Origin: Longimicrobiales bacterium
GTDB taxonomy: Bacteria; Gemmatimonadota; Gemmatimonadetes; Longimicrobiales; Gaopeijiaceae
NCBI GenBank assembly: GCA_965226375.1
Contig: CBDDCX010000004.1
Span: forward strand, 1-64,000
DNA: 64,000 bases
Reading direction: 5' to 3'
This document shows positions 4,842 through 30,694 of the stretch, in pieces. Made by a program: the position numbers and the translations under genes. Below the pieces are notes generated by a model. It was not told the DNA's origin. It ran no database searches and saw only the letters and a program-made list of their open reading frames with translations. How positions within the stretch are numbered: the stretch's first letter is position 1; each line of letters starts with the position of its first letter.

Positions 4842-5695
4842 ACCCTGCACACGTCCACCGCGTCTCGGATCGCCCCGATGGGCTCTCTGGTGGGGTTGAA
4901 CTCGTGCGCCACGTAGCCGCCGAATTCGAGTTCGGCCAGCGCCAGGGCGATACCCCGGTAGTTCAGTTCCTGGGTCTCGTCCAGTTCGTGACGGCCCGGC
5001 ACCCCCGCCGTATGAATGTGGACGATGGCGTCTCGATGCGCCCGTAACGTGTCGATGACGTTCCCCTCCATCACCTGCATGTGGTAGATGTCGTAAAGGA
5101 GGCGGAAGTTCGGTGAGCCCACGCCCCGGACGACTTCGAGTCCGTACCGGGTAGAGTCGGCATCGTAGTCGGCGTGGTCCACCGTACTGTTGAGCATCTC
5201 GAGGCACAATGTCACGCCGTGACGCTCCGCGGTCGGGGCAATCTGCCGGAGGCCCTCGGCACAGGTGGCAATGCCCTCGGCCTCGGTCCGCCCCCTGCGA
5301 TTCCCGCTCATGACGATCAGGTTGCGGACTCCCGCCGCGGCTGCGTTGGGGATCGCCTCTTCCAACTCCGCGATCAGCGTCGCGTGCATGTCGCGATCGT
5401 TGAAGCCGTCCGAGATCAGTCGAGGGCGTCGCGACGCGTACCCCATAGACACCGCGAGGCCGTGGGAATGGGCCACAGCCCATTCGTCGGGGAACAGCAG
5501 ATCGATGGCTTCGAGGCCCATAGAACGGGCTTCGCGACAGAAGTCCTCGAGCGGGATGTCCTCGAAGGGCCACCTACAGACCGACTGGTGCAGACGGCCG
5601 GGCGAGGCGGACCCGCTCGCGGGCCCGGTGGCACCCAGGCCGGCGAGGGCGCCCGCCGTGCTCGCCGCCCCTGCCACGAAAGCACGTCGCTTCAT
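4838..5695 (-). CDS. Hydroxypyruvate isomerase family TIM-barrel protein, Tat signal
   Basis: MKRRAFV Tat motif; LCLEMLNSTVDHADY, LLYDIYHMQVMEG, HIHTAGVPGRHE. Confidence 0.88.
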   Translation of the reverse strand: MKRRAFVAGAASTAGALAGLGATGPASGSASPGRLHQSVCRWPFEDIPLEDFCREARSMGLEAIDLLFPDEWAVAHSHGLAVSMGYASRRPRLISDGFNDRDMHATLIAELEEAIPNAAAAGVRNLIVMSGNRRGRTEAEGIATCAEGLRQIAPTAERHGVTLCLEMLNSTVDHADYDADSTRYGLEVVRGVGSPNFRLLYDIYHMQVMEGNVIDTLRAHRDAIVHIHTAGVPGRHELDETQELNYRGIALALAELEFGGYVAHEFNPTREPIGAIRDAVDVCRV

Positions 5696-6540
5696 CAGGT
5701 GCCCAGTCGGCTCAGATAATCGAAGCTGGCCGCAACCGAGGCGTAGCTGTCGGTGGGATCATCGTGCTCAACGAAGTAGTGGCGGATGCCGGCGATGGCA
5801 CGAGCACCAAAGATCTCTTCCCAGTCGATGGCACCGGCGCCCACATCCACCATGACACCTTCGGCCGTTCGGTCTTTCACGTGGACCATGGGCACCCGAC
5901 CCGGCCAACGCTCGAAAAAGGTCAGGGGATCGCCCCCACCGTGGATGATCCAGAACAGATCGAGCTCGATCTTCACCAGATCCGGGTCGGTCTGCTCACA
6001 GAGCAGGTCGAAGGGGATCTGCCCATCGATCGGCAAGAACTCGGTCGCGTGATTGTGGTACGCGAACTGGATGCCCGCCGCGCGAGCCGCATCGGCCGCC
6101 CCGTTGAAGATGTCGGCCACTGCGCGCCAATGGTCCAGGGTGACACTCATCTCGCGTGGCACGGAGGGCACGATCACATACGGATGTCCGATCGTGTTCG
6201 CGATGTCGAGCGTATTCGGCCAGTCGTTGAGCACGGCGTTCATGTCGACATGCGCCCCGGGTGAGCTCAAACCGGCGGCGGTGAGTCCGTTCCGGATCTC
6301 GGCCGGACTCAGGCCGAAGTAGCCGGCGAACTCCACCTCGCGGTACCCGATCTCCCTAACCCGGGCAAGCGTCGCATCCACCCCCTCGGCCATCTCACGC
6401 CGCAGCGTATAGAGCTGGAGGCCGAGCGGACCCAAGGGGCCGGTCACGATTTCGGTTTGTGCGCATGCGAGCTCACTGATCCCGACGGTGCCGGCGGCCA
6501 TGATCCCGAGGCGCCGTAACGCGTCGCGGCGCGTGATCAT
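5695..6540 (-). CDS. Sugar phosphate isomerase/epimerase (AP_endonuc_2 TIM barrel), Tat-lipoprotein signal
   Basis: TRRDAL...LAC; GLQLYTLR, FAYHNH, IELDLFW, VHVKD, YFVEHD; start at ATG 6540 overlaps the GMC stop. Confidence 0.88.
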   Translation of the reverse strand: MITRRDALRRLGIMAAGTVGISELACAQTEIVTGPLGPLGLQLYTLRREMAEGVDATLARVREIGYREVEFAGYFGLSPAEIRNGLTAAGLSSPGAHVDMNAVLNDWPNTLDIANTIGHPYVIVPSVPREMSVTLDHWRAVADIFNGAADAARAAGIQFAYHNHATEFLPIDGQIPFDLLCEQTDPDLVKIELDLFWIIHGGGDPLTFFERWPGRVPMVHVKDRTAEGVMVDVGAGAIDWEEIFGARAIAGIRHYFVEHDDPTDSYASVAASFDYLSRLGT

Positions 6541-8228
6541 CACAACTCCCCCCGTGTTATCAGGTCGACCGCATGATCTACGGCCCTTGCCGTGAGCGCC
6601 ATATACGTGATGCTCGGGTTCTGGTTGGCGCTCGACGTCATGCAGGCCCCATCGGTCATGAATAGATTCGGGACGTCCCAACTCTGGTTCCACCCATTCA
6701 GTACGGACGTAGCGGCGGTCCGGCCCATTCGGGCCGTCCCCATCTCGTGGATGGTGAGTCCGGGCGGGTTGTCTTCCAAGAAGGCCTCAATCTCGGTAGC
6801 CCCGACCGCCTCGAGCATCTCCGCGGCCTGGGTCCTCATCTCCCTGAGTACCCTGCGTTCGTTGTCACTCCACTGGCAGTGGATCCTGAGCGACGGAATA
6901 CCCCAGGCGTCCACCTGCTCCGGGTCCAGGTCCACGTAGTTCGACTCTCGAGGTAGGCACTCCCCGAAGCCGTAGAGGCTCGTCTTCCATGGCCCCGGAG
7001 TCCTGAGGGCATGCTTGAAGTCGGCTCCGAACCCTTGCATGGCGTTGCCCCGCTGCCAACCCTCACGAGAGGCTCCCCCCTGGTACGCGTACCCCCGCAG
7101 GAAGTCCGGATGCTGGTCAGTCACGTTGGCAAAGCGAGGCAGGTAGATACCGTGCGGCCGACGGCCGTACATCCACTTGTCGGCGAATCCGGGGATGGTC
7201 CCCACCGCCCCTCCGCCCATGGTATGATCCATGAGGTTGCGGCCCAGCTGGCCCGAAGAGTTGGCCAGCCCGTCCGGCCAGCGCTCCGTCTTCGAGTTGA
7301 GGAGAATCCGCGTGGACTCGAGGGCAGAAGCGCACAGAAACAGCAGGCGAGCCTTGTACTCGAAGGTCTCGTGCGTCTCGCCGTCGATGACACGTACGCC
7401 CTCAGCGCGTCCGGTACCGACGTCGTAGATCACGCTGTGGACCACGCTGTGCGGGCGAAGCGTCATCCGGCCCGTGGCGGCCGCGGCCGGCAAGGTTGCT
7501 GCGAGAGAGCTGAAGTACGAGTGGGTCGTGCAGCCGCGCTCACAGACCCCACAGAAGTGGCAGGCGGCACGTCCGTTGTGGTTCTCGGTCAGGATCGCAC
7601 ACCGGCCCACGGTGAGCACCCGGTCGCGGCCGAAGCGCCGGCTCATCCCATCGCGGACGAACTTCTCGGCGCAGTTGAGCTCTACCGGCGGAAGGAACTG
7701 AGCGTCGGGGACCTGCGGCAGGCCCTCGGCCTGTCCACTGACCCCTACGAATCGCTCCACATAGTCGTACCACGGCTCGATGTCGGCATACCGGATCGGC
7801 CAATCGACCCCGTGTCCGTCTCGGGCGTTGGCCTCGAAGTCCAGGTCGCTCCAGCGGTAGACGTGGCGGGCCCACACCAGCGACCGTCCGCCCACCTGTC
7901 GTGATCGGATCCAGGAGAAGGGTTTTCCTTCTCCCGTGGTGTAGGGGTTCAGGTCATCACGGACGAAGAATTTCTCGCTGTAGGCATCGCAGGCGTAGCA
8001 CTCGCGCTGGACGGGCCGTTCCTTCTCTTGCCGGTCCCGATCGCGGCGGCCGCGGTGTCGCATCTGCCACGGCTGCGTCGTCATCTCGTAATCGGTCGCC
8101 GGATCGATGGAGCGTCCAGCCTCGAGGACGAGCGTGTTGAGGCCGCGCTCCGTCAGCTCCTTTGCGGCCCAGCCCCCGCTCATGCCGGAGCCGACCACGA
8201 TGGCGTCGAAAGCCTCCTGGCGAGCCAT
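6540..8228 (-). CDS. GMC family FAD oxidoreductase (glycoside 3-dehydrogenase-like catalytic subunit)
   Basis: DAIVVGSGMSGGWAAKEL, RQVGGRS, Cys cluster CHFCGVCERGC, IHEMGTARMG, NPSITYMALTARA; start ATG 8228. Confidence 0.92.
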   Translation of the reverse strand: MARQEAFDAIVVGSGMSGGWAAKELTERGLNTLVLEAGRSIDPATDYEMTTQPWQMRHRGRRDRDRQEKERPVQRECYACDAYSEKFFVRDDLNPYTTGEGKPFSWIRSRQVGGRSLVWARHVYRWSDLDFEANARDGHGVDWPIRYADIEPWYDYVERFVGVSGQAEGLPQVPDAQFLPPVELNCAEKFVRDGMSRRFGRDRVLTVGRCAILTENHNGRAACHFCGVCERGCTTHSYFSSLAATLPAAAATGRMTLRPHSVVHSVIYDVGTGRAEGVRVIDGETHETFEYKARLLFLCASALESTRILLNSKTERWPDGLANSSGQLGRNLMDHTMGGGAVGTIPGFADKWMYGRRPHGIYLPRFANVTDQHPDFLRGYAYQGGASREGWQRGNAMQGFGADFKHALRTPGPWKTSLYGFGECLPRESNYVDLDPEQVDAWGIPSLRIHCQWSDNERRVLREMRTQAAEMLEAVGATEIEAFLEDNPPGLTIHEMGTARMGRTAATSVLNGWNQSWDVPNLFMTDGACMTSSANQNPSITYMALTARAVDHAVDLITRGEL

Positions 8229-8806
8229 CAGCCGCCCTCCACCGTCTGGCGGGTGACCTCGGACAGATCCGCGCATCCGTCGAAGCGGCCGGGAATCTCT
8301 TGCCAGAGAAGCTCCTGCTTCATGCCGATCTCAGACGTGTAGTATCCACTCAGGACTAGACTACGGAAGGAGTGGAAAAAGGGCGTGGGGGTGTCTGCGT
8401 CCCCCTCCTCCATCAGCGCCCGGCCCTCCGCCTCAAAGCCGGACAGAATCGCCGTCTGGGTAGCCTGTCCCGAGTGGGCGAAGCGGACCCCCGTCAGGGC
8501 CTCCGTGTGTTCGTCCACGTGAGCCAGACCTCGCATGAGGTGTTCACGCTCATCGGGTCTCATCCACTCGGATACGATCATCTCGATAAAGTCCACCACT
8601 CCGGCCTCGACGGCACCCGGCGTGTCCGTCTCCGGAATGATGGCCTCGGACAACGCCGCCACGGCCTCCCGTTGCTCGGCCGTGAAGAACGCGCTCCCTG
8701 GACGTCGACGCTCGCCCGGAGCAATCAGGGCGGCGAGTTGGCTGGGCGAGAGGCCAGCGACAGTCGCCGTAACACCGAGAATCTGTAGTAGATGGCGCCG
8801 GTCCAT
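8228..8806 (-). CDS. Gluconate 2-dehydrogenase subunit 3 family (Tat hitchhiker subunit)
   Basis: MDRRHLL Tat motif; IIPETDTPGA, LSGYYTSEIG, IPGRFDGC; GAAGGAG RBS. Confidence 0.9.
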   Translation of the reverse strand: MDRRHLLQILGVTATVAGLSPSQLAALIAPGERRRPGSAFFTAEQREAVAALSEAIIPETDTPGAVEAGVVDFIEMIVSEWMRPDEREHLMRGLAHVDEHTEALTGVRFAHSGQATQTAILSGFEAEGRALMEEGDADTPTPFFHSFRSLVLSGYYTSEIGMKQELLWQEIPGRFDGCADLSEVTRQTVEGG

Positions 8807-9022
8807 CCGCGCTCCTTCGAGTGAGGGGGCGGTGAACTTACTCGGGGGAAGCATGAAGCCGCCAGAAGAGTCTGACCCGAAACTCGTTCTGCCGACCTGG
8901 TTGCGTCACTGGTTTCGTCACTGGTCTCCTCCGGCGTCCGACCGTATCCTCGGCGAGTCGAACCCGCGCCGCCATGAGTCCGCTCGACCCGGCTCGTCCT
9001 ACGCCAATCGAGGGAGTTATCA

Positions 9023-10813: not shown

Positions 10814-12738
10814 TCAGGCGAGCAGCGCCTCGATCGCGCGTCGGCCTTCGCCCGCCGCTCCAGTCCAGTTCTGATGGCCCCGGAGTTCCGAGTGCCCGAT
10901 GGCGATGCGCCCGAACGGCTCCCGGATGACGTCGGGGGGTGCCGGCGCTCCGTTGCGACCGAACATGAAGCCGGGCCCGGGATGCACGTAGGCGTGTCCC
11001 CAACGGTTCAGAATGATCCCGGCGATGTCGTTGGCCGGATCGAACCCCGCGTCGCCGAAGAGCCGGACCATCTGCTCTCGAATCTGCCGCTCGTATCCCG
11101 GGAAAGACGTTCCCAACACCTGTGTACGTCCCGCAACCCCCTGGTCGGCAGCTGCCATGCCTGGAAAGTAGCTCGGCGCGTAGAACGTCATCACCACAGG
11201 CCGATCGGGGTGGAGCGGTGGAGCCTCTCCGCCCACCAGCATAGGCCGTCGGATATTGCAGTAGAACCCGAATCCGTCGGACCAGATACCCGCGGCGACG
11301 CCGAGCCGCTCGAGGAAACGCCAATTGGTCAGCGCCACGTTGGCCACGAGCACCGAAGAGTGGTTGAACCCCTCGTAGGCCTGCCGGTGGCCGTCGGGCA
11401 AGTCTCGCAGAACGCGGCGGTTGACCCACCCACCCGAGCCCATGACCACCTGATGCGCCCGAAGCTGGTGGACCCGATCATCGTTCAGATACGTGATCAC
11501 CACACGCTCCGAACTGCTCACCGCACCCTCGTGCTCCACCGCACCACCGTCGATCCGAGCCTCATTCGGACCGGATTGTCGGAACGATCCAGACGGTCGA
11601 AAGCCACGGCTCCATTCAGGACGTCGGCCAGCTCACCCGACCCGACGATGCCGTCCGGAATTAGATTCTTGACGAAGTAACGTGCGAGTCCGGCATTCCC
11701 CCCCGGAAAGCAATGGAACGTGAAGCCGGCATAGCGGTCGGGCTTCCGGAAGCCGGGGAGCTCGAAGTGCAGCCCCCACCAAGCCGAGATCGCGTCGCAC
11801 CCCAGCCCGATGATGCTCGCGAGAATCGGGTCGACGTAGGCGGTCACCTCAGGCGGCAGGCCCAAGACACCCTCGTAGTACTGCTTCATGGTCATCGAGT
11901 CGAGCCAGGGACCGATCTCCCCTTGGGCGTGCCGTTCGGCCTCCTCCTCACGCGCCCCCCGGAAAGAGTCGCGAACCCCCGAGCTCCATGGAGCCTGGTC
12001 CAGCCCGGTCCGCCAAAGATCGTGGACCCAGCGCCCGCCACCATCGTCGAAGAAATGGCCTACGGAAAATAGGTCGTGCTGCCAGTGGAGGAAGCCATAG
12101 TTGTCCATGGGAATTCTCATTCCGGCGGCCGATCCTTCCGGCTCGCGGTACTCGAATTCACGGGGGATGCCGAGGGCCGTGAAATAGTCGTCCGGGTTCC
12201 CGGTCTCTGCTTGAATCCCGAAGTCGTTCGATCCCTGGGGGCCCATGAGCCGATGGCCATCCACCAGGAATTCGTTCCGCTTGGCCTCGCCCCCGAAAAT
12301 GGGGTGGTTATCGAGAATCAGGCAGCGTCCACCGGGGTTCAGACGGCGGAAGTGGTGTGCAGCCGAGAGTCCGGAGAACCCAGCGCCGACGACCACCAGG
12401 TCGTACTCCTCGCCACTGTCGATCGCGTTCGCCGAAGGCCGATCGAACTCACCCGCCCGGATCCGGTGCGCATCGCGCACCAGCCCCGGGGTATTGCCGT
12501 GTGAGTCGCGGTAGTCACCGACTCCACCCGGGCCGAACCAGTCGTCCCCAACCTCGAATTGGTACGCGGCCTGGGACGCATCGGAGGTGGCCGCACCCGA
12601 ATCCGCCGAGTCCTCCGGACGGCAACCTGTGATGGCTCCGGCGGCGAGCAGCGCCGAGCCATACACCGAGCCGTACACGAAGTCCCTGCGCGTGATAGGC
12701 CGGTCAAGGCCGAGCTCGCGGTCTCTTTTCGCAGTCAT
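10814..12738 (-). pseudogene. spdH: Spermidine dehydrogenase (SpdH-like flavoprotein) split by a 1-nt frameshift near 11540
   Basis: N-part: LGLDRPITRRDF, YDLVVVGAGFSGL, DNHPIFGGEAKRNEF, FPGGNAGLAR; C-part: NRWGHAY, PFGRIAIGHSEL. Adding one G at ...CGG^TGG... restores STVVRVEHEG. Could be a sequencing error. Confidence 0.8.
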
Positions 12739-12802
12739 GTCATCTCCGCAGAGTTGAGGTACCGGCCGCACGCCGCAGTGGCGAACCCGGAGGCGGCCCG
12801 GC

Positions 12803-14551
12803 CTACGTCGCCTCTGTGCTCGATGCGATGGCCCCAACGCCGAAATGGCTGAACCGCCCCCGCTCCGCACCTCGGCGGACCCACTGAACAAGGGCCCACT
12901 CCGCCAGAACCGCCAGTGCCACCGCCAGCAGTACGCCCAGGTAAGCCGTGAAGGGCGCCGGCTCGTTCAGGTCCAAGTACATCCAGGAGGAAAGAGACAT
13001 GCGGAGGCCCGTCTCGCCGTTGGCTCCGTCCCAGACATGGAAGGCCACCGGGACCAGCCGCCCCGCCGCGAGCTGCACCTCGCCCGTGGTATGCTCGGTT
13101 CGGAGCGGCCTCCGGATCACGACAGTCCATCGTCCCTCCATCCAGGATCCGCTCCCGGTGGCGAGTTGGCTGTCGGCGTCGTGCACCTCGGGTGGAGCAT
13201 CCGCCCCATCTGCGCTCATCTCGATCACGGCGGGCTGCCCGGCACCGTACTCGTGCTCGGCCCGCCATCTCCACAGGTCGACGGGCTGGCCCACGTTGCC
13301 GTACACGAAGTGGGGCAGGACCAAATTGTTCTCGTTGTGCACCGGGATCATGATCTCGGCCGCATCGGCGAACCAGCCCCGCACTCGCTCTCCATCGGGG
13401 AATACCACGGGGTACGTGTCGTCGGCGCTATAACCCTCGGTGAGCGCCCGCATCGAGTCCACGGCCAGGGTGTCTGCGAAACGGTCATCCCAGGCAAGCC
13501 GGAACGCGATCTCGTCTTCGTTGAAGGCGACTCGAACCGAAACGTCCGTCACCGCGGGAATCTGCCACCGAGGCGCGTATGTGGCCTGTCCGGTCAGAGG
13601 CACCTTGACCTCGTCCACGTCATCCCACGCCGGATCCTCGGAATCGTTGGGTAGTGGACCCTCGACCCGAAACGCAGGGATGATGCTGGACTCGGACTCG
13701 CTCTCATCGTCAGGGATCAGGGACTCGATGTAGTAGGCGAGCTGCCAGCGTTCCTCATTGGTGACGGTGGCCTCGTATGAAGGCATGGGCGTGCCGTCGA
13801 GTCCCGTGGTGAATCGCAGGTAGATCTCCTCGACGGTCCGGCCGCCCTTCAGCTTCCACTGCTCGTGGAGGTTCGCGGGCCAGATGGGATAGTCCCAGTC
13901 GTCGGTCAGGTCCGGTACACGCGCGCCATCGCCACGTCCGAGCATGCCATGGCACTCCCAGCACTTGTTCTCGTCGTAGATCCTCTCGCCCGCGGCGATC
14001 AGGTCTTCAGCCCTTCCGGAAGGCCGGTCTCCAATCTCGGCAATCGCCTGATAAGGATCGAAGAACTCATCCTCGAACAGGTCGGCAGCAAAGTTCTTGA
14101 TGTACCCGATCACCTGCCACCGCTCCTCTTCAGACAACACCGACTCCCAAGCGGGCATGGAGCTGCCCGCGAGACCGATGCTGATGGTGCGGAAGAGATC
14201 CTCGTCCAGGGGAAGCTCGCCGGTGGTCGTGGTTCGGAGTTTGAAGCTTCCCATGGTGAAGTCGCGCGGGCGGGGCCACAGGTACGGAGCGACAGGGCCG
14301 TCACCCATGCCTTCTTCCCCATGGCAGAACCAGCACTGTTCCTCGTAGACCGCCCGACCTGCATCAACGTCCACTGTCGCCGGGTCGGGTCGGGTGGGAA
14401 CGTTCAGCTCGATCCATTGAGCGGCGGCGGCGCGCGGCCACCCTCCGAGCAGCGCGATGGCCATCAGGGCCGCCACGAGCCAGGGAGCACAACGGGGAGC
14501 ACAACGGGGAGCACGACGGGGAGCACGACGGGGAGCACAACGTGGGCTCAT
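12803..14551 (-). CDS. Di-heme c-type cytochrome fused to an ethylbenzene-dehydrogenase gamma-like (EB_dh/DOMON) domain, with C-terminal membrane anchor
   Basis: CWFCH and CWECH; PRPRDFTMGSFKLRTT; PVDLWRWRA, WTVVIRRPL, VAFHVWDG; signal peptide ending AAAA-Q; ATG 14551 overlaps the upstream stop. Confidence 0.85.
   Translation of the reverse strand: MSPRCAPRRAPRRAPRCAPRCAPWLVAALMAIALLGGWPRAAAAQWIELNVPTRPDPATVDVDAGRAVYEEQCWFCHGEEGMGDGPVAPYLWPRPRDFTMGSFKLRTTTTGELPLDEDLFRTISIGLAGSSMPAWESVLSEEERWQVIGYIKNFAADLFEDEFFDPYQAIAEIGDRPSGRAEDLIAAGERIYDENKCWECHGMLGRGDGARVPDLTDDWDYPIWPANLHEQWKLKGGRTVEEIYLRFTTGLDGTPMPSYEATVTNEERWQLAYYIESLIPDDESESESSIIPAFRVEGPLPNDSEDPAWDDVDEVKVPLTGQATYAPRWQIPAVTDVSVRVAFNEDEIAFRLAWDDRFADTLAVDSMRALTEGYSADDTYPVVFPDGERVRGWFADAAEIMIPVHNENNLVLPHFVYGNVGQPVDLWRWRAEHEYGAGQPAVIEMSADGADAPPEVHDADSQLATGSGSWMEGRWTVVIRRPLRTEHTTGEVQLAAGRLVPVAFHVWDGANGETGLRMSLSSWMYLDLNEPAPFTAYLGVLLAVALAVLAEWALVQWVRRGAERGRFSHFGVGAIASSTEAT
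14483..14542. repeat. 12-bp tandem repeat x5, GGGAGCAC(A/G)ACG, encoding (R[C/R]AP)5 in a signal-peptide n-region
   Basis: Units start at 14483, 14495, 14507, 14519, 14531. Confidence 0.95.
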
Positions 14552-15339
14552 CCGCCCAGCTCCTCGGGCTCGCGCGGCTCCGTACCCGAAAGGCGGTACT
14601 CGGCCATGATGATCTTCCAGATCTCCTCGGTCGTGAGTTCGTCGCCCCACGCTGGCATGGCCGAATTCCACGGCGTCGAGATGGCGGGGAGCCCGAGCGA
14701 CCCCTCCGTGATCCTCCAAAAGGGGTGCGACTCGATCACGGTGCCAATCGTTCCGAGATCCGTAAAATCGATCGGCTGGAGCCGCTGACCGCGTGCCAGG
14801 GGCCCGTCGCCGTCTGCCCTGGTCCCGTGGCAGGGCCGGCAGTTCTTCTGATAGAGCACGACGCCCTCGCGCTCGAGTCTGCGACGGTCCTCCGCTGACA
14901 CGTCGGCATAGGGATTCTCCAGGCTGGCGAACTCGTCGGGAAGGGCCGGGTGTTGGACTCGGATCACAGAAGGAGTGCGCGAGATCGGCATCAACTGCCG
15001 GAAGGCCACCCACCCCACCAAGAGAGGGAGGAGTGCTAGGATCAACAGCTGGGAGCGCCGCGGGCCGGCGTCCGCGATGCTGAAGATGCGGACCATGGGA
15101 CCCAGGAAGGCATTCCACCGCTCGTTGTCGGCGCTCATGTAGATCACAGTGCCCACGACGACGCAGGCCATGTATCCGCCCAAGGCGAAGCGAGGGACCG
15201 GCGCCGGTGTCTCGCTCAAACCCACGATCACCGACAGCCACGGCACGCCGAAGCGGAGGCTCACATAGATGGCCACGAACGCGATCGCCGCGGCCGAAAG
15301 GACTCCTCCCTTCCGAGCAGATTCGGTGTCTTTACTCAC
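14548..15339 (-). CDS. Membrane-anchored monoheme c-type cytochrome
   Basis: Three N-terminal hydrophobic segments, CRPCH, SAMPAWG distal Met motif. Confidence 0.85.
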   Translation of the reverse strand: MSKDTESARKGGVLSAAAIAFVAIYVSLRFGVPWLSVIVGLSETPAPVPRFALGGYMACVVVGTVIYMSADNERWNAFLGPMVRIFSIADAGPRRSQLLILALLPLLVGWVAFRQLMPISRTPSVIRVQHPALPDEFASLENPYADVSAEDRRRLEREGVVLYQKNCRPCHGTRADGDGPLARGQRLQPIDFTDLGTIGTVIESHPFWRITEGSLGLPAISTPWNSAMPAWGDELTTEEIWKIIMAEYRLSGTEPREPEELGG

Positions 15340-15393
15340 CTACCCCCTCCTTCATTCTCGGCGATCTTCAGCCACCGTCTCGCGCAGCCACAT

Positions 15394-16368
15394 CTACTGC
15401 AGCGTTCGTAGGTAGGACAGCAGGTCGTGGAACTGCGTCACCGAGATCATCCCCGCAAAGTCGCCCGGCATGAGCGAGAGCTCCTGCACGCGCCGCCGAG
15501 CGATCCCCTCAATGGCGAGCGCGTACTCCACCTCGTCCGCCGTCACCAACCATAACGAGTCGGCCGTCTCCCGTCGGATCACTCCATCCAGGATGCGCCC
15601 GTCGGTCGTCTGAATGAGGACGGACTCGTATCCACCAGCGATCACGGCGCTCGGCTCGAGAATCGACTCGACGATGAACTGAGCGGTCCTCGTTCCCGCG
15701 ATCGCCGACAGGTCGGGACCGATGTCACCGCCCACGCCGCCGACCGTGTGGCACTTCGCACACGGGGTCGGACCCTCAAGGTCGAAGAAGATCTCCCGGC
15801 CCACCACCGAATCTCCATCAAGATACGGAGCCCAGGCCTCGACGTCCGCAACCCTGCCGGCCGCCTGACGCACCTCGGCGGGTAGCACGATCGAAGCCGG
15901 GTCAGGCGCTCCACCCAGCGTCTGGAGATAGAGGATGACCGAGCCGAGCTGATCGGGCCCCAGGCTGATGGGTGGCTCATAGACCGTCGGCATCTCGTCC
16001 TTGAAGCCATCGACCACGAAAGCGCTGGGACGGATAACGGACTCGATGAGGTATTCGGTGGCCGTGAGGATCCGTCCCAAATCCCCCTCCCGCGCACGAC
16101 CCCGCTCTTCGGCTCGCACAGCGATTATCGGCCCCACATCGGACTGACCGAGGTTCGGGCCTCTGACCGAGCTCCCACGACTTCCGATGGAATGACAGGT
16201 GCTGCACTTGCCTGGGCCCCAGAAGATCAGCTCTCCGTTTTCCGCGCTCAGGCCTTCTCCCAACGCCAAGGGAGATCCCTCACCCGAGACTCGGGTGATC
16301 CCGTTACCGGCCCATATGAACAGTCCGATGAGGACCACCGTGAACGCGAAAATCTTGAACGGGGCCAT
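15394..16368 (-). CDS. Membrane-anchored di-heme c-type cytochrome
   Basis: N-terminal TM helix, CSTCH and CAKCH, GPDLS..ESILEPSA..SLMP motifs; start ATG 16368. Confidence 0.85.
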   Translation of the reverse strand: MAPFKIFAFTVVLIGLFIWAGNGITRVSGEGSPLALGEGLSAENGELIFWGPGKCSTCHSIGSRGSSVRGPNLGQSDVGPIIAVRAEERGRAREGDLGRILTATEYLIESVIRPSAFVVDGFKDEMPTVYEPPISLGPDQLGSVILYLQTLGGAPDPASIVLPAEVRQAAGRVADVEAWAPYLDGDSVVGREIFFDLEGPTPCAKCHTVGGVGGDIGPDLSAIAGTRTAQFIVESILEPSAVIAGGYESVLIQTTDGRILDGVIRRETADSLWLVTADEVEYALAIEGIARRRVQELSLMPGDFAGMISVTQFHDLLSYLRTLQ

Positions 16369-16372
16369 GAGT

Positions 16373-18424
16373 CTAAGGTCCCTCGCCGGCGGTCGGCCGG
16401 CCCGCGGGTTCGAGCGCTGGCCGGAGCGGGTTATCGGTGCTCGCAAGCACGTCCTCCGGATCATTCAGGCCCGAGAGCCAAAAGAGGAACGACACCGCGG
16501 CCAGAAACACGAGGGTGATCCCACCTACCATCTGTGTCATCACGGCAGTCGTCGGCGTGAACGCCCATTCAGACGTATCGCGCAAGACACCGTAGATGTG
16601 CCAGCCCTCCCTGAGGCCCGAACGAACGAAGCCCATCAGACCCATCGTCAGGACGGTAGTCACGCAGAGAGCGATCAGGGCGTATTGGGAGCGCGCCGTG
16701 ACTTCACCCCAGCGTATGGCCCCGAGACTCCTGGCTCCCCGGAAGAGGAGCACGTCGATGGCCGTGACGAGGATCAACCCGGACATGAGTATCAACCACT
16801 GGGTTGCCGCGACCTGCCGCAGGAGTGGGTTCGCCTGGACCATGACGACGAATCCGTACACCCCGAGGAACCCCACGGCCGCCAGAGCCACCGTCGCGAC
16901 ATAGATGATTTGGGCGAGATGACCCCGGTCGCGCAGAGCCAACCCCACACACACCACCACAGCCAGCATGGTCGCAACGAGCAGGAACGCCGGGATGCGG
17001 ATGAAGACCGCCCCCTCCGGTCCCAGGCCTACGGACTCGGGGGGCAGGGTGAACAGCACACTCGCGTACCACCCCAGGAGCAAGAGGCAGAGCCCTCCGG
17101 ACAACACCAGGACCAACTTGGCTCCGCCACCCTGCTTAGACAGTGGCACCAGATCGGTCTTGTTGGCACGTCGATAGAGGAGGAAGCTCGCGAAGGTCGT
17201 CAGGATGATGAGATTGATGACCGCGTTCTTGGCGGCCATGAGACCGAAGTAGCCCAACACAGGGTGCACCTGTCCACCTAACGCGAGCTGCTCCTCGGCG
17301 CTCAGGGGAAGGTTCCGGGGCGTGAGCCAGATGGCTACGCAGACGATTAGAATGACGTTGAAGTACTTCACGAACCTCTGATACCGCTCGGCTCCCGGAA
17401 TGCGATTCATCCCGGACCACAGGTAGTAGTTGCCGATCATGAACAGCAAGCCCACGAGCAAACCCTGGAGGATGAACGTCCAGGAGAACGCCCCGCCCAT
17501 CATGTTGTTCCCCATGACTGGACTGGCGCTGTAGATCTCCCGACCCAGGTAATAACCCGCGAAGGGTAGCGGGATGAGGGCCGCCAGGCCGATGAAGTTC
17601 CCTACGTACCCCATCCAGTCGTAGTGGGCCCTCCTCGCCTCGGTACGCGCGGCCAAGAACTTCACCGCCGCGTAGGCGCCGACCAGGAACCCCCCGAACG
17701 CCACATTCCCCAGTAGTCGGTGAATGTTCAGGGGCATCCACAGTGGGTTGGCCACCGCCTGCATGGTGGTCCCGACAAACGTTCCCGTCTCATCCACACC
17801 GGTAGGGCTCATCATGTACGAGGCCCACGCGTTGCTTATGAAGACCAGGATCGTACCCGCCAGGTTGAGCAGAACACCCAGGGCGATGTGAAATCCCTTT
17901 CGATCCGCCAGTCGATCCCAAGAGTAGTAGTAGCTGTACAGGATGCCCGTCTCGACGAAGAAGAACGCGGCGTAGATGTAAAGAGACGGGGAAAAGATGC
18001 TGATGAAGTACCCGGAGAACGCCGGGTACAGCCCGAACAGGGTAAAGGCGAGGAGGCCGCCGAGGGCCGCCGTGGTGGCGAACGCGACCGTCAGGAGTTT
18101 GACGAATTCTCGGGCCATGCGATCGTAACGCTGATCACCGGTGCGCCAACCGATGCACTCGACGATGACCGCGAAGATCGGTACTCCGAGAACGAAGGCC
18201 GCGAACAAGAGGTGGAGCTGGGCGACCACCCAGATGGTGGCCCGCGGGCTCAGTCCGAAGAAGGTTCGTACCCCGTTCTCCACTGCGGGCACACCCCCCT
18301 GGGCCGCCCAAAGGGCCTCGGGGAGGACAAAAAAGACCAGCCCGGCAACGACTCCGGGGCACAAGGCTCGACGTGCCAACGTGCCCATTCCCGGGCACGA
18401 AGGCAGGCGGAGCCTCATGGTCAC
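16373..18424 (-). CDS. cydA: Cytochrome bd-like oxidase subunit I (CydA homolog, Nitrospira-type)
   Basis: WVVAQLHLLFAAFVLGVP, FFVET...WDRL, SYMMSP, PLNIHRLLGN, MGFVRSGLREGWHIYG; many TM helices; GTGA overlap with the upstream gene. Confidence 0.85.
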   Translation of the reverse strand: MTMRLRLPSCPGMGTLARRALCPGVVAGLVFFVLPEALWAAQGGVPAVENGVRTFFGLSPRATIWVVAQLHLLFAAFVLGVPIFAVIVECIGWRTGDQRYDRMAREFVKLLTVAFATTAALGGLLAFTLFGLYPAFSGYFISIFSPSLYIYAAFFFVETGILYSYYYSWDRLADRKGFHIALGVLLNLAGTILVFISNAWASYMMSPTGVDETGTFVGTTMQAVANPLWMPLNIHRLLGNVAFGGFLVGAYAAVKFLAARTEARRAHYDWMGYVGNFIGLAALIPLPFAGYYLGREIYSASPVMGNNMMGGAFSWTFILQGLLVGLLFMIGNYYLWSGMNRIPGAERYQRFVKYFNVILIVCVAIWLTPRNLPLSAEEQLALGGQVHPVLGYFGLMAAKNAVINLIILTTFASFLLYRRANKTDLVPLSKQGGGAKLVLVLSGGLCLLLLGWYASVLFTLPPESVGLGPEGAVFIRIPAFLLVATMLAVVVCVGLALRDRGHLAQIIYVATVALAAVGFLGVYGFVVMVQANPLLRQVAATQWLILMSGLILVTAIDVLLFRGARSLGAIRWGEVTARSQYALIALCVTTVLTMGLMGFVRSGLREGWHIYGVLRDTSEWAFTPTTAVMTQMVGGITLVFLAAVSFLFWLSGLNDPEDVLASTDNPLRPALEPAGRPTAGEGP

Positions 18425-19263
18425 GGCGAGCTCTGCGTCAACTCTACACTCGCGTCAAGGGTCTCGCCGGCCGCTACCGTCACCGTCTGCGTAGTCGCCC
18501 CAAGGGCCTCGTGCCACACCTCGAGCGTATACGTGCCGGGGGGCACGTTCGAGAGGACGAAATCTCCGTCACCGTCGGTAACGGCATGGTATGGGTGGCC
18601 CGTGACCACGATCCAGCCGTTCATCCATCCATGGATATCGCACTTGACCGCCACCTTCTCGGCAACGTCGAAGGTCGCCTCGAGCTTCTCGAGCGCAGGA
18701 GGCTGGGTTCGGTTGAACGAGCGGTTGTCGAACGCCATGGTGTGGACGTTGTGGGACACATCGTCGCTATTCAGTATCTCGAGCACCTCGCCGACTGCCA
18801 CCATCACCACATGGGGATCGAAGTCGCACCCGTTCTGGTCCAAGGCGGGAGGCGATGCGGCCTCCTCGCGGGCGGCTCCACTGGTGATGTCCGTGAGGGA
18901 CACCACGACGTTGGCCAGTCCGCCTCCGGCGCCGACCTCGATGTCCTGTAGCTCGACGGACGAGCCACAGGCGTCCACATCGTCGGTAATGGTGATCGTG
19001 CGGGCCGCAGGCACCGCCCCGGCAAAGACGATCGTCCCGCTGATCGAGCCACCGTTCTCTACCGCGACCACGTTGTATCCGGAGCCACCACCGCCCTGGG
19101 CTTCACCCGCCGGTTGCCCCGCGGACCCAGGAGCCTGATCGGCGCTACCGCCGTCCCCACCGCATGCCGCCAGTCCCAGGACCAGCAACGCGGAAATGGT
19201 GTTGTTTATGCCTGCCGCCGAGCGGCCTGACGGCCCGCGGCGAAGTTGATTCTGGAATCGCAT
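18421..19263 (-). CDS. Lipoprotein with cupredoxin-like core and carboxypeptidase-regulatory-like beta-sandwich
   Basis: Lipobox LAAC; DQNGCDFDPHV, HNVH, KCDIHGWM, LSNVPPGTYTLEVWHE; CAGGAGG RBS before ATG 19263. Confidence 0.82.
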   Translation of the reverse strand: MRFQNQLRRGPSGRSAAGINNTISALLVLGLAACGGDGGSADQAPGSAGQPAGEAQGGGGSGYNVVAVENGGSISGTIVFAGAVPAARTITITDDVDACGSSVELQDIEVGAGGGLANVVVSLTDITSGAAREEAASPPALDQNGCDFDPHVVMVAVGEVLEILNSDDVSHNVHTMAFDNRSFNRTQPPALEKLEATFDVAEKVAVKCDIHGWMNGWIVVTGHPYHAVTDGDGDFVLSNVPPGTYTLEVWHEALGATTQTVTVAAGETLDASVELTQSSP

Positions 19264-19467
19264 CAGAGCCTCCTGTGGGCTCAGTCGTGTACGGGTTATT
19301 TGGCGGTTCAATCTGCGGCCTGAGGGCGCGTGGTCAAGGACCCTCGAGACGCTCGGCGGTGAGTGGCTACCCCCGCTTGTGGGAGGGTGGCGAAGGCAGT
19401 AATAGTTTAGGGTCGTCCATCCGCCTCGAATCGCTGCGAGCGATCTCAGCCAATCGGAGGTGAGAGC

Positions 19468-21225
19468 ATGAACAGGCACCGACCCTCCCGCTCACCGAAG
19501 CCCCGCGTCGCACTCACCGGCGTATTGTTGAGCCTCGCCCTAGTCGGCTGTCAGGATCGAGACAGCGCGCGGCTCCGATTCGTCATCTCCTTTCCCGAAC
19601 ACCGAAGCGCCGAGGCGCAAGACGGTCGAGTCCTCCTGTACATCTCCAAGAACGACAATGCCGAACCCCGCTTCCAAGCCGGGAACGGACTCGATACTCA
19701 GCTCGTCTTCGGCGTTGACGCGGAGGGGCTCGAGCCCGGCGAGGATGCGGTCATCAACGCGGGAGTCTTCGGATACCCGCTCGAGAGCCTCGCGCAGATT
19801 CCCCCGGGCGACTACTGGGTCCAGGCCCTCCTCAACCGATACGAGACTTTCCATCTGGGCGATGGGCGTGTCTTGAAGTTGCCTCCCGACAAGGGCGAGG
19901 GGCAGCATCTGGAACGCAAGCCGGGCAACTTCTACAGCGCCCCCCAGCGCATGCACATAGATCCTCGTGAGAAGGCTACGGTGCGGGTCTCGATGGATCG
20001 GGAGATTCCGCCGATCGTGCCACCCGAGGATACGAAGTACGTGAAGCACGTTCGTATGCAGAGCGAGCTCCTCTCGGAGTTCTGGGGCCGCCCCACGTAT
20101 CTGGGCGCGCACGTGCTCCTCCCGGAGGGATTCGACGAGCACCCCGAGGCCCGTTATCCACTAGCGATCTCCCACGGGCACTTCCCCGTAGACTTCGGAG
20201 GGTTCCGCGAGGCTCCACCCGACCCCGACCTGGCACCCGACTACAGCGCCCGCTTCGACCTAGAGGGTTACAACCGGATCGTCCAGGAGCACGCCCACCA
20301 GTTCTACCAAGAGTGGACCGGACCCGACTTCCCGAGAATGCTCATCATCTCGATCCAGCACCCCACTCCGTACTTCGATGACTCCTATGCGGTGAACTCG
20401 GAGAACATGGGCCCCTACGGTGACGCCATCACCCACGAGTTCATCCCCTTTATCGAGCAACGCTTCCGGGGAATCGGCGAGGGGTGGGCCCGCTTCCTGT
20501 ATGGAGGGTCGACGGGTGGGTGGGAGGCCCTGGCAGTTCAGGTCTTCTACCCCGACGAATACAACGGGGCTTTCGCAGCCTGCCCAGACCCGATCGACTT
20601 CCGGGCGTTCACGCTCGTCAACCTCTACGAGGACAACAACGCGTACTATCCCGACTCGGACTGGAAGCGGATCGCACGGCCGCGCAGCCGGACCACGCTG
20701 GGGCAGGTCACGACTACTCTCGAGGACGTGAACCATAAGGAGCTGGTACTGGGCACCAAGGGCCGCTCGGGCGGTCAACGCGACGTGTGGCTGACGCTCT
20801 TCGGTCCGCCCGGGGAAGACGGCTATCCCCGGCACGTCTGGGACAAGATGACGGGGGAGATCGACTCCGAGGTGGCCGAGTACATGAGGGAGAACTTCGA
20901 CCTACGCCATATCCTGCAGCGGGATTGGGCGACCCTGGGTCCGAAGCTGGTCGGCAAGATCCACATCTACGCGGGTGAGATGGACAACTCCTATCTCAAC
21001 AACGCCGTCTACCTCATGGAGGACTTCCTGGAGGGTACGACCGATCCCTATTACGACGGACTCGTAGACTACGAGCCCCGGGCCGGTCATTGCTGGAACG
21101 GCGATCACGACCGGCCCAACGCCCTCTCACGTCTGCGCTACAACCAGATGTACGTGCCCCGGATACTAGAGAGGATCACGGCAGCAGCGCCTCCCGGAGC
21201 GGACCTGACCAGTTGGAGGTATTGA
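19468..21225 (+). CDS. Putative esterase (alpha/beta hydrolase), lipoprotein
   Basis: Nucleophile elbow GGSTGGW, DDSYAVNS, IHIYAGEMDN, GHCW; lipobox LVGC. Confidence 0.75.
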   Translation: MNRHRPSRSPKPRVALTGVLLSLALVGCQDRDSARLRFVISFPEHRSAEAQDGRVLLYISKNDNAEPRFQAGNGLDTQLVFGVDAEGLEPGEDAVINAGVFGYPLESLAQIPPGDYWVQALLNRYETFHLGDGRVLKLPPDKGEGQHLERKPGNFYSAPQRMHIDPREKATVRVSMDREIPPIVPPEDTKYVKHVRMQSELLSEFWGRPTYLGAHVLLPEGFDEHPEARYPLAISHGHFPVDFGGFREAPPDPDLAPDYSARFDLEGYNRIVQEHAHQFYQEWTGPDFPRMLIISIQHPTPYFDDSYAVNSENMGPYGDAITHEFIPFIEQRFRGIGEGWARFLYGGSTGGWEALAVQVFYPDEYNGAFAACPDPIDFRAFTLVNLYEDNNAYYPDSDWKRIARPRSRTTLGQVTTTLEDVNHKELVLGTKGRSGGQRDVWLTLFGPPGEDGYPRHVWDKMTGEIDSEVAEYMRENFDLRHILQRDWATLGPKLVGKIHIYAGEMDNSYLNNAVYLMEDFLEGTTDPYYDGLVDYEPRAGHCWNGDHDRPNALSRLRYNQMYVPRILERITAAAPPGADLTSWRY

Positions 21226-23721: not shown

Positions 23722-24414
23722 TCAGGGCTGCGGCGTCTCGGACGCACCCGTGAACGTCACGTCGACGGAGATCGTCTCACCGTCTCCAACCTCGATTGTG
23801 GTCTTGACCTCACCGGACCACTCGCTCCAGGCGGTCAGTTCATACTGTCCGGGAGGCACCTCACTGATCGAGTACGTGCCGTCAGCGTTTGCCTTGGTGA
23901 AGAACCCGTTCTCCAGCACCAGAATGTGAGCGATCATCTGCGAGTGGATGTCGCACAGCACCAATACGCTGTCGGGCCTGGCAAAGACCCCGGTAAATGT
24001 CGAGCCGGGACGCTGACCGCGGTTGAAGTTGCGATTCCGGCGCCTACCCTTGGCGTAGGTATGGATGTTGTGGAGTTCGTCGTCGCTGTTGTGGAACGAC
24101 AATTCGTCACCCGCGAGAACGGGCATCACCCTGGGGACGAACGTGTAGTCTATCTGGTCCAGGAGCAGTTGCTCCGGGGTGTGGGTGGGCGCGGGTGTTT
24201 CAGCCGTCAGACCTTCGCCCGACAAATAGATCACGGCGTCCGTGACCTCGAAGAACTGCTCGTCGGGCAGGGTCTCGAAGCTCACTGTCCCTTGTACGGT
24301 GCCGGTCGCTGGCTCGTCGACCGCGGTCGAGGGACCGAACGCAGGCCAGAGGAACGGTGTGATGAGCCCTGCGGCCAGGGCCAGAGTACTGTGACGGGTC
24401 ATTTTGCTGTTCAT
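23722..24414 (-). CDS. Secreted cupredoxin-like / carboxypeptidase-regulatory-like domain protein (paralog of 18421-19263)
   Basis: DQIDYTFVPRV, HNIH, LCDIHSQM, ISEVPPGQYELTAW. Confidence 0.78.
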   Translation of the reverse strand: MNSKMTRHSTLALAAGLITPFLWPAFGPSTAVDEPATGTVQGTVSFETLPDEQFFEVTDAVIYLSGEGLTAETPAPTHTPEQLLLDQIDYTFVPRVMPVLAGDELSFHNSDDELHNIHTYAKGRRRNRNFNRGQRPGSTFTGVFARPDSVLVLCDIHSQMIAHILVLENGFFTKANADGTYSISEVPPGQYELTAWSEWSGEVKTTIEVGDGETISVDVTFTGASETPQP

Positions 24415-24846
24415 GTGTGCTCGTTCATCTTCGTGTGTGCCCGTACATCTCGTGCATACTTGCTGGTCTGGTTCACATGCTGCTACGTCATTGTGTTGGC
24501 CCGACCAGCGCAGCCCGTTCGATTTCATGCTACACCGTGCGCGCCGCTGAGATCGCCTTTCCCGTGCTCCGCCCCTCCCGAATCACCTTGAAGTGGGGCC
24601 ACCGTCGAGTGCATGAAGCAACACAATGTATTGATAAATGGTCTAATCCGGGGTGAGGACATGACTATTGCCCGGCAACCGATTCACACCGTATGTTCAA
24701 ATTCCTCACGGGCCCGCCGCTCCGAGAGGACAAGACATGCACGACTACTGTCGTGCGCTCGCCCGTGTCAGCCTCTGACCGAGTGTTCTTCGGCCACGAT
24801 ACCGCACCACGGGATCGGGCCGAATGATGCTTGTGAGGAGGAGCTT

Positions 24847-27045: not shown

Positions 27046-27414
27046 AACAGTAGGTGAGGGTAGGGCCCTGAGTTGGAGGGTGGTTCTGTCTTGACAGAGC
27101 CTCGGGATGATGGGGGCGAGGGCCCCGCAGTACGATGAGTGGCACGGGATGAGGAAGCCAGCTTCCTCGCCCGCTGTAAGACGGCTTCGTGATCCGCCGC
27201 ATTCCGGCTCGCCATCGGTCGAGTCGGCGCGAAGTCGCGGTACCGTGAGAGGGCATATGACAAGGACCTTCCAGTCCTTTTTGCAGCGCCCACCTAAAGG
27301 CGTCCCTCTCCGTGCTCATCACATCCACATCCAAGAAGGAGTCCGCTTATGACCTGTAATGAACGTTTGAATTCTGTAAAGACTATTCGGCAACACATCG
27401 CAAGGAGGTTAGCA

Positions 27415-30624: not shown

Positions 30625-30694
30625 GGTGATGACGATGTTTCGAACACTGAAACCAACCATGATCAAGACATTCGATACTTGTGGGGGATCAAAA

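Follow-up and report, generated by a model that had tools for sequence, protein, structure and literature searches.

A complete copy of the OR-N cytochrome bd-like module, with three cytochromes c and a cupredoxin, in a Longimicrobiales genome

Five genes at positions 12803–19263 of the stretch analysed here (the window: 64,000 nt, positions 1 to 64,000 of contig CBDDCX010000004.1, assembly GCA_965226375.1 of a Longimicrobiales bacterium, Gemmatimonadota) encode a cupredoxin lipoprotein, a CydA-like membrane protein and three cytochromes c. Together they represent a complete copy of the bd-like module of the OR-N family, similar to TO_1. The module belongs to a described kind of system, and the suggestion of an "undescribed system", made in an earlier sequence-only reading of the window, has to be abandoned. 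In the accessible parts of Lucker 2013 (PMC3578206) and Mundinger 2019 (PMC6606698) the exact gene set is described for Kuenenia, Nitrospira and Nitrospina, and the accessible part of Murali 2021 (bioRxiv 10.1101/2021.01.16.426971) classes the module as OR-N, which is widely distributed in Bacteria. The function of these bd-like proteins is an acknowledged gap: Nitrospira and Nitrospina are presumed to use them as terminal oxidases, and in anammox bacteria their genes are part of the nxr cluster. Our analysis adds that the family splits into two clades, both of which this genome holds, that the window's clade is rare in its phylum, that nitrite oxidoreductase (NXR) was not found in the searched genome, and that two subunits have a predicted docking site.

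Composition of the module and its described relatives

The five genes are intact, lie on the minus strand and are tightly packed: in gene order, the first and last junctions are 4-nt overlaps (GTGA and ATGA), and the two between them are gaps of 4 and 54 nt. The sequence-only reading had listed five co-oriented genes that overlap or lie within about 55 bp of each other, with the motifs given in Table 1, and this was borne out; the sole correction concerns the dihaem cytochrome gene, for which 16368 is a more likely start than 16464. Its comparison with the CydB-less bd-like module of Nitrospira and Nitrospina was also correct, since the gene set, the gene order and the clade are the same, and this extends to anammox bacteria. 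The three cytochromes hold five haem c motifs and one EB_dh domain in total, and a hydropathy scan and motifs indicate a membrane anchor on each subunit. The CxxCH motifs, their methionine ligands and the four copper ligands are kept in at least 93% of 40–72 homologues, and given this conservation the motifs are, judging from the alignments, not chance occurrences.

The Pfam profile Cyt_bd_oxida_I (PF01654) matches the CydA-like protein at 99.8 bits (curated cut-off 26.2), only over residues 61–303 and profile positions 3–243 of 418, and the NCBIfam CydA equivalogs reach 36.7 bits (cut-off 968) and 30.5 bits (cut-off 1025). No cydB adjoins the block, as had been noticed earlier, and no PF02322 (CydB) match was found in the whole genome (4.2 Mb, 8 contigs, 90% complete, which is the scope of all whole-genome searches below); as a control, PF02322 was matched in 9 of 14 genomes. 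Since sequence homology to CydA ends at about residue 303 with no homology to the Q-loop, the equivalogs stay at or below 37 bits and no CydB was found, the data support the view that this is not a canonical quinol oxidase.

The protein has an N-terminal signal-like helix and about 14 long membrane helices (hydropathy scan and AF2 model), and no CxxCH motif is present in its 683 residues. The AF2 model obtained from a 42-sequence alignment (pLDDT 84.3, pTM 0.85) was aligned by VIA-align with ten CydA structures at Z of 32–35 and a root-mean-square deviation of 3.1–3.9 Å over 345–359 residues; because the aligned span corresponds to model residues 46–663, the whole CydA core appears to be kept, with extra helices inserted into it. 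The next structural family is represented by the NrfD-like ActC/ActF of alternative complex III (ACIII; Z 20–23, 311–345 residues aligned). No solved OR-N structure was among the matches, in which CydA was represented by canonical chains only.

Profile alignment to Geobacillus CydA pairs H21 (His19 of E. coli) with H71, E108 (Glu107) with E158, the haem b558 histidine (His186) with H235, and E101 (Glu99) with Y151. Residues H71, Y151, E158, H179, H235, H387 and H609 are invariant in 42 CydA-like sequences from both clades described below. Canonical CydAB(X) (E. coli 6RKO and 7OSE, Geobacillus 5DOQ) thus has in common with the window system the CydA fold and the equivalents of His19, Glu107 and His186, whereas the window system differs by the lack of CydB and of Q-loop homology, by Tyr in place of Glu99, by the extra helices and by its c-type cytochrome partners.

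In the accessible text of Murali 2021, OR-N proteins have neither the quinol site nor a haem c motif in CydA, keep His19, possess about 14 helices in OR-N1/N2 as opposed to 10 in N3–N5, and are encoded in operons with alternative electron donors. The window protein is likewise without a quinol site and keeps the His19 equivalent, and its block offers three cytochromes c and a cupredoxin as candidate donors. There is no second cydA in the operon, as the same text states for OR-N2. By the donor operon, the lack of a haem c motif and the approximately 14 predicted helices, the window protein is assigned to OR-N and differs from the OR-C proteins, which, according to that text, carry haem c motifs inside CydA.

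The agreement with the systems of nitrite oxidisers and anammox bacteria is equally close. According to the accessible parts of PMC3578206 and PMC6606698, the described bd-like protein has 14 helices and no Q-loop, which is replaced by helices (Lucker 2013, PMC3578206), and it is accompanied by a mono- and a dihaem cytochrome c, a cupredoxin-like protein and an alternative NxrC that carries a membrane helix as well as two haem c motifs. The N. moscoviensis set (bd-like_3, two cytochromes c and alt_NxrC_2) and one half of the Kuenenia and Nitrospina nxr cluster represent, as far as these texts go, the same gene set as the window. The CydA-like protein of the window is 55–59% identical to the anammox, Nitrospirota and Nitrospinota copies, which have the same gene order and fall into the same clade.

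The genomic context, in contrast, differs from that of the nitrite-oxidiser and anammox clusters: the host has the appearance of a Gemmatimonadota organotroph, no Usp/zinc-finger-type accessory gene adjoins the window block, and neither an nxrAB-type enzyme nor RuBisCO was found in the genome. With the type II dimethyl sulfoxide reductase alpha subunit family as a proxy for NxrA, the best match to TIGR03479 was 117.8 bits (cut-off 984.75), and the best match to NarG (TIGR01580) was 32.2 bits (cut-off 1084), so that the absence of nxrAB, first seen in the window, now extends to the genome. Within the limits of a genome that is 90% complete, the gene content supports the view of the host as a heterotroph without NXR. 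Since a module of the anammox/Nitrospirota type occurs in a genome where NXR was not found, its role is not tied to NXR alone. The link between the module and nxr is itself taken from the published descriptions, because the Kuenenia hertensis locus showed no molybdoenzyme gene over 8 kb upstream of its module.

In TO_1 of Ca. Manganitrophus and other Troglogloeales, as described in the accessible text of Yu et al. 2022 (PMC9040806), the bd-like protein is joined by an EB_dh subunit, a periplasmic protein of cytochrome b type that is supposed to accept periplasmic electrons. The Troglogloeales locus of our set (L012) carries the block, as the window does; both clades stand in tandem in L012 and in another Nitrospirae locus (L006), whereas in the window genome they are on different contigs. 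No report of the bd-like module in Gemmatimonadota or Acidobacteria was among the papers listed from the literature collection searched.

In outline, the module is also similar to the cbb3 oxidase (CcoNOP), in which mono- and dihaem cytochromes c anchored in the membrane deliver electrons to a catalytic membrane subunit, and the window cytochromes give weak NCBIfam matches of the CcoP/FixO type. However, the catalytic subunit of cbb3 is a haem-copper protein unrelated to the bd superfamily, and the window module has more haems, an EB_dh domain and a cupredoxin.

The cupredoxin gene has AGGAGG before its ATG, and its product carries the lipobox L-A-A-C. H171, C208, H211 and M214 do not vary among 25 aligned homologues and are at least 93% conserved in 40. 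The Copper-bind profile of Pfam gives 19.4 bits (below its cut-off of 21.2), and CarboxypepD_reg gives 43.5 bits on the C-terminal beta-sandwich. The Foldseek top matches of the AF2 model (pLDDT 84.7) are amicyanin, plastocyanin and other cupredoxins (E 1e-6 to 1e-4, TM to target about 0.7). By its ligands and fold the lipoprotein is a blue-copper, amicyanin-like cupredoxin, which probably acts as a periplasmic electron carrier or entry point. A paralogous cupredoxin-like plus CarboxypepD_reg gene with the motif CDIHSQM lies 4.5 kb upstream of the block (23722–24528, minus strand); five such paralogues occur in the genome, on contigs C4 (two), C6, C7 and C8 of our numbering.

Cytochrome c Pfam domains exceed the curated cut-off in all three cytochromes. 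The dihaem cytochrome has a hydrophobic helix at residues 1–25 and a second haem domain of the TIGR02603 type (119.6 bits, cut-off 68.15), and both its CxxCH motifs are kept in at least 93% of 58 homologues. The monohaem cytochrome matches Cytochrome_CBB3 (39.8 bits) and has hydrophobic stretches at 10–42, 48–70 and 95–119; the motif R127-x2-H130-P131 after the third helix is invariant in 24 sequences. In the fusion cytochrome, EB_dh (PF09459) scores 80.9 bits (cut-off 33.3) and TIGR03477 scores 96.7 bits, under its cut-off of 169.85; a C-terminal hydrophobic helix occupies residues 530–559. The EB_dh domain is common to this protein and the EbdC/NxrC gamma subunits, but the Met/Lys haem b pair of EbdC is not in the window protein: when the protein is aligned with chain C of 2IVF, the ligands Met108 and Lys201 are matched by Tyr and Met, and no conserved H/M/K ligand pair was found in the EB_dh domain across both clades.

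Table 1. Genes of the bd-like module in the window, in gene order
Gene	Position	Strand	Product and features
Cupredoxin lipoprotein	18421..19263	-	280 aa; H171, C208-x2-H211-x2-M214; C-terminal CarboxypepD_reg
CydA-like	16373..18424	-	683 aa; Pfam PF01654, Cyt_bd_oxida_I
Dihaem cytochrome c	15394..16368	-	324 aa; CSTCH and CAKCH; N-terminal membrane helix
Monohaem cytochrome c	14548..15339	-	263 aa; CRPCH; three N-terminal membrane helices
Dihaem cytochrome c-EB_dh fusion	12803..14551	-	582 aa; CWFCH and CWECH; C-terminal membrane helix

Conservation of the block, its two clades and the predicted complex

A GTDB scan with one genome per species revealed at least 593 stretches encoding a relative, 79 loci of which were kept. 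All three cytochromes were matched by tblastn in 71 of the 79 loci, which answers the question of whether the block is kept in other genomes; in 65 they lie downstream on the same strand and in the same order, and the 8 loci without cytochrome matches have no more than 1.1 kb of DNA beyond the CydA-like match. Represented among the 79 are Methylomirabilota/Rokubacteria, Nitrospirota, Nitrospinota, anammox Planctomycetota, KSB1, Chloroflexota, Myxococcota, Acidobacteriota, Rhodothermales, Poribacteria, Fibrobacterota, Bdellovibrionota, Pseudomonadota and Gemmatimonadota. The module is spread over more than a dozen phyla, among them many likely heterotrophs, and its supposed confinement to nitrifiers and Mn oxidisers does not hold.

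The CydA phylogeny proposed with the sequence-only reading was obtained as a quick maximum-likelihood tree of 94 CydA-like sequences, which separates two clades (SH-aLRT 100). The window protein belongs to the smaller clade (29 rows, as opposed to 65 in the larger one), where it groups with the Nitrospirota, Nitrospinota and anammox copies: it forms a cluster with four Gemmatimonadota sequences (100), and Nitrospirota and Rhodospirillaceae rows are adjacent (96). This clade also holds copies from Chloroflexota and Methylomirabilota. A cupredoxin homologue is present in all 24 window-clade loci among the 79 and lies directly upstream in 21 of them. The larger clade, which is without about residues 433–510 (two helices), was found in Acidobacteriota, Rhodothermales and Gemmatimonadota, i.e., in lineages of ordinary aerobic heterotrophs.

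Among 301 sampled genomes of the phylum (one of them, G182, flagged as unpublished), 86 have a match. The window clade occurs in five of them only (the window genome G000, together with G060, G127, G086 and G290), always alongside the other clade. One could suppose from this rarity that the window copy is a decaying or silent, horizontally acquired relic, the module of the commoner clade doing the work; the accessory genes described below are absent from the window, and the gene directly downstream of the block is frameshifted. We consider this explanation very improbable, since the five frames are intact with every conserved ligand present, and the five-gene order is kept at 50–76% identity in three other genomes of the phylum, in which the flanks differ, and this is indicative of purifying selection. 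Composition shows no sign of a recent transfer: the GC content of the block (0.62–0.65) is the same as that of the flanks, and third-position GC is also like that of the surroundings.

The commoner clade is represented in the window genome by a second module, located on another contig (C6, at about 630.3–645.1 kb; locus L003, 4311–19115), with the same four partner genes. Here, a co-oriented string begins with an Mrp/ApbC-like Fe-S carrier, a Usp-PCP_red protein and an AhbD/NirJ2-like radical SAM/SPASM-PCP_red enzyme, continues with the CydA-like protein (586 aa), the dihaem, monohaem and dihaem-EB_dh cytochromes and a cupredoxin, and ends with coxB-coxA-coxC. When this locus is added to the 79 GTDB loci, the Usp-PCP_red protein is found near the module in 46 of the 80 loci, the radical SAM enzyme beside it in 23, the Mrp/ApbC-like carrier near it in 13 and cox genes beside it in 12, the C6 module included. 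An ActB-like gene of ACIII (about 990 aa) stands directly upstream in 24 of the 80, mostly from Acidobacteriota (within L026–L070), and some of the ActB-linked loci (L036, L061 and L079) also have cox genes.

None of these five kinds of neighbours was found in the window. The description of the window block as "self-contained" is thus correct as to the five genes, which are complete, and less so as to the accessory functions, because the Usp-PCP_red and radical SAM genes occur once each in the genome, beside the C6 module. The radical SAM enzyme is nearest to the haem-modifying enzymes NirJ2 (282.6 bits) and AhbD (273.6 bits), below the 500-bit cut-offs. The Usp-PCP_red and radical SAM neighbours may mean that the haem of the CydA-like protein has to be tailored or delivered in a special way.

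Both clades lie side by side in four loci, two from Nitrospirota metagenome-assembled genomes (MAGs; L006 and L012) and two from Myxococcota and Rhodospirillaceae MAGs (L024 and L066), an arrangement that probably gave rise to the CydAA' proposal of the literature. An obligate pairing of the clades is nevertheless unlikely, because each has its own three cytochromes and is found alone in some genomes: of five genomes from other phyla with the window clade, three (Kuenenia, KSB1 and a Nitrospinota MAG, their completeness being unknown) showed that gene alone. If the two clades correspond to OR-N1 and OR-N2, these data do not fit an obligate CydAA' pair. The occurrence of each clade alone and with its own cytochromes constrains the proposed subunit composition.

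We infer that the five proteins form one membrane complex from the overlaps and gaps of no more than 54 nt, the conserved gene order and the membrane anchor on each subunit. A complex prediction with residues 58–658 of the CydA-like protein, the monohaem cytochrome and three haems gave a median score of 0.71, the best control being 0.01. In the benchmark, 116 of 157 solved complexes and 2 of 215 mismatched pairs attained this mark, and these counts hold only roughly here, as custom alignments were used with haems riding along. The runs share at least 50% of contacts, with a partner pLDDT of at least 74, and recall of the answer from training is unlikely because no OR-N structure has been solved. 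Confident contacts join residues 32–72 of the monohaem cytochrome (the first periplasmic turn and the second helix) with residues 329–390, 576 and 578 of the CydA-like protein. Residues 329–390 lie beyond the part alignable to CydA by sequence and presumably occupy the place where the Q-loop would be. The prediction supports binding, in which a membrane helix of the monohaem cytochrome would dock on the CydA-like protein, and it makes this contact testable.

A proposed terminal oxidase and the competing explanations

Sequence and models taken together, we give about an even chance to the module being a terminal oxidase fed by cytochrome c and copper protein. In such a system, periplasmic donors (soluble cytochromes c, cupredoxins, or periplasmic dehydrogenases directly) would reduce the copper site and the c-haems, from which electrons would pass to a low-spin haem b at H235 (the b558 position) and then to a high-spin haem at H71, which corresponds to His19 of E. 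coli CydA; O2 would be reduced at this haem. Cytoplasmic protons would arrive past the conserved E158, and the charge separation would add to the proton motive force, so that the module might work in parallel with the haem-copper oxidases of the genome. The putative feeding by cytochrome c or copper protein instead of quinol follows the reading of the literature and fits the anatomy of the module. An oxidase role for the family has been proposed in the accessible parts of Murali 2021 (bioRxiv 10.1101/2021.01.16.426971) and PMC9040806, as well as in PMC10839748 and PMC12342949.

Retention of the active-site histidine and of one channel glutamate speaks for O2 reduction. The gene neighbourhoods also support an oxidase role, since oxygen reductases usually sit directly downstream of ACIII genes (PMC12342949) and the module occupies just this position in the 24 loci with an ActB-like gene upstream. 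Moreover, a whole-genome family search revealed two NrfD/ActB-like (ACIII-like) sets and a cytochrome b in the window genome, so that a second quinol:cytochrome c link would not be needed.

Several points weigh against a terminal oxidase. The equivalent of Glu445 was not found in the CydA-like protein by sequence, the equivalent of Glu99 is replaced by the invariant Y151, and it is doubtful whether the EB_dh domain even holds a haem b, because the EbdC ligand pair is not conserved. Besides, the genome already has three COX1-family genes, as revealed by the family search, and the C6 module stands in line with coxBAC, which reads equally well as a feeder of an aa3 oxidase. Anammox bacteria are strict anaerobes, and the window clade is kept in them (9 of its 29 rows, at 55–57% identity to the window protein). 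No family member had been purified or assayed as of 2024 (PMC10839748). For the N. moscoviensis cluster, which is among the 40 most transcribed genes, the accessible part of Mundinger 2019 (PMC6606698) proposes reverse electron flow to quinone instead of O2 reduction.

This proposal leads to the view, which we regard as rather unlikely, that the module is quinone-linked and ACIII-like, has an unrecognised quinone site and connects quinol with cytochromes c or copper proteins of high potential by electron transfer. In the forward direction it would feed aa3-type oxidases, and in reverse, driven by the proton motive force, it would provide reverse electron flow. Such a role was suggested for nitrite oxidisers and anammox bacteria in the accessible parts of Lucker 2013 (PMC3578206) and Mundinger 2019 (PMC6606698). 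It agrees with retention of the family in anaerobic anammox bacteria and with the cox genes beside the block in 12 of the 80 loci, including L003, which runs into coxBAC on the same strand like the ACIII-caa3 operons. The similarity of the model to the quinone-interacting NrfD-like ActC/ActF (Z 20–23) points in the same direction, although canonical CydA may show it too. However, the quinol-binding residues of canonical CydA are absent (Lucker 2013, PMC3578206, accessible part), and the end of CydA sequence homology at about residue 303 is consistent with their loss. Position of the module after ACIII in 24 of the 80 loci would place two quinol:cytochrome c enzymes next to each other, the genome has its own ACIII-like genes and cytochrome b, and the window copy adjoins no oxidase.

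Perhaps the same cytochrome-c-fed haem site reduces or detoxifies another oxidant, such as nitric oxide (NO), peroxide or an oxyanion. The window clade is concentrated in organisms handling nitrite and NO (anammox bacteria, Methylomirabilota/NC10, Nitrospirota and Nitrospinota), a Usp-domain protein accompanies the module in 46 of the 80 loci, and canonical bd oxidases also serve to detoxify O2 and NO, a possibility left open for OR-N (PMC10839748). We hold this to be quite improbable, since the larger clade is spread among ordinary aerobic heterotrophs (Acidobacteriota, Rhodothermales and Gemmatimonadota), a Pfam and neighbour survey found no denitrification gene in the block, and there is no experimental hint of such activity.

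The terminal oxidase can be given a more specific form, which as a whole is unlikely to be correct in all its parts. The two clades would represent separate, self-sufficient complexes and not the halves of CydAA'; in both, the membrane domain of the monohaem cytochrome would dock on the helices replacing the Q-loop; the invariant H130 of this cytochrome, together with the conserved periplasmic patch E378/H387/M396, would form the electron entry to the b558-type haem; and the invariant Y151 would stand in for Glu99 at the O2 site. If true, this would be a distinct, cytochrome-c-driven way of O2 reduction in the bd superfamily, by which heterotrophs could burn the electrons of periplasmic dehydrogenases at low O2.

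Surroundings of the block in the window

The nearest proteins to those encoded in the window carry the Gemmatimonadota label. A promoter and terminator scan of positions 12400–19600 returned one promoter-like and four terminator-like sites, with no excess over shuffled sequence. All or part of the stretch was found in 20 sequencing runs from 9 studies, and no RNA run is listed among them.

Directly downstream of the block (10814–12891, minus strand) lies a gene for a Tat-signal lipoprotein FAD oxidoreductase, in which a frameshift near 11,535 produces two frames. Each of its paralogues, on contigs C3 and C6, reads through as one continuous gene; the frameshifted copy represents a true pseudogene or else a fault of the assembly. 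We rejected this gene as a part of the module: a homologue is found in 0 of the 79 loci and none lies beside the block in three related genomes, in addition to the frameshift itself.

Around the block, the window encodes SusC/SusD proteins, peptidases, an amidase, amidohydrolases and a GMC-type dehydrogenase. The latter belongs to a group at 4838–8854 (minus strand) with a Gluconate_2-dh3 small subunit, the GMC flavoprotein dehydrogenase and two xylose-isomerase-like TIM-barrel genes. These dehydrogenase genes have no cytochrome c subunit of their own nearby; they represent a possible periplasmic electron source, with no link to the module. At 27349–32173 (plus strand), a SusC-like TonB-dependent receptor is paired with a SusD-like lipoprotein, which fits an organotrophic lifestyle.

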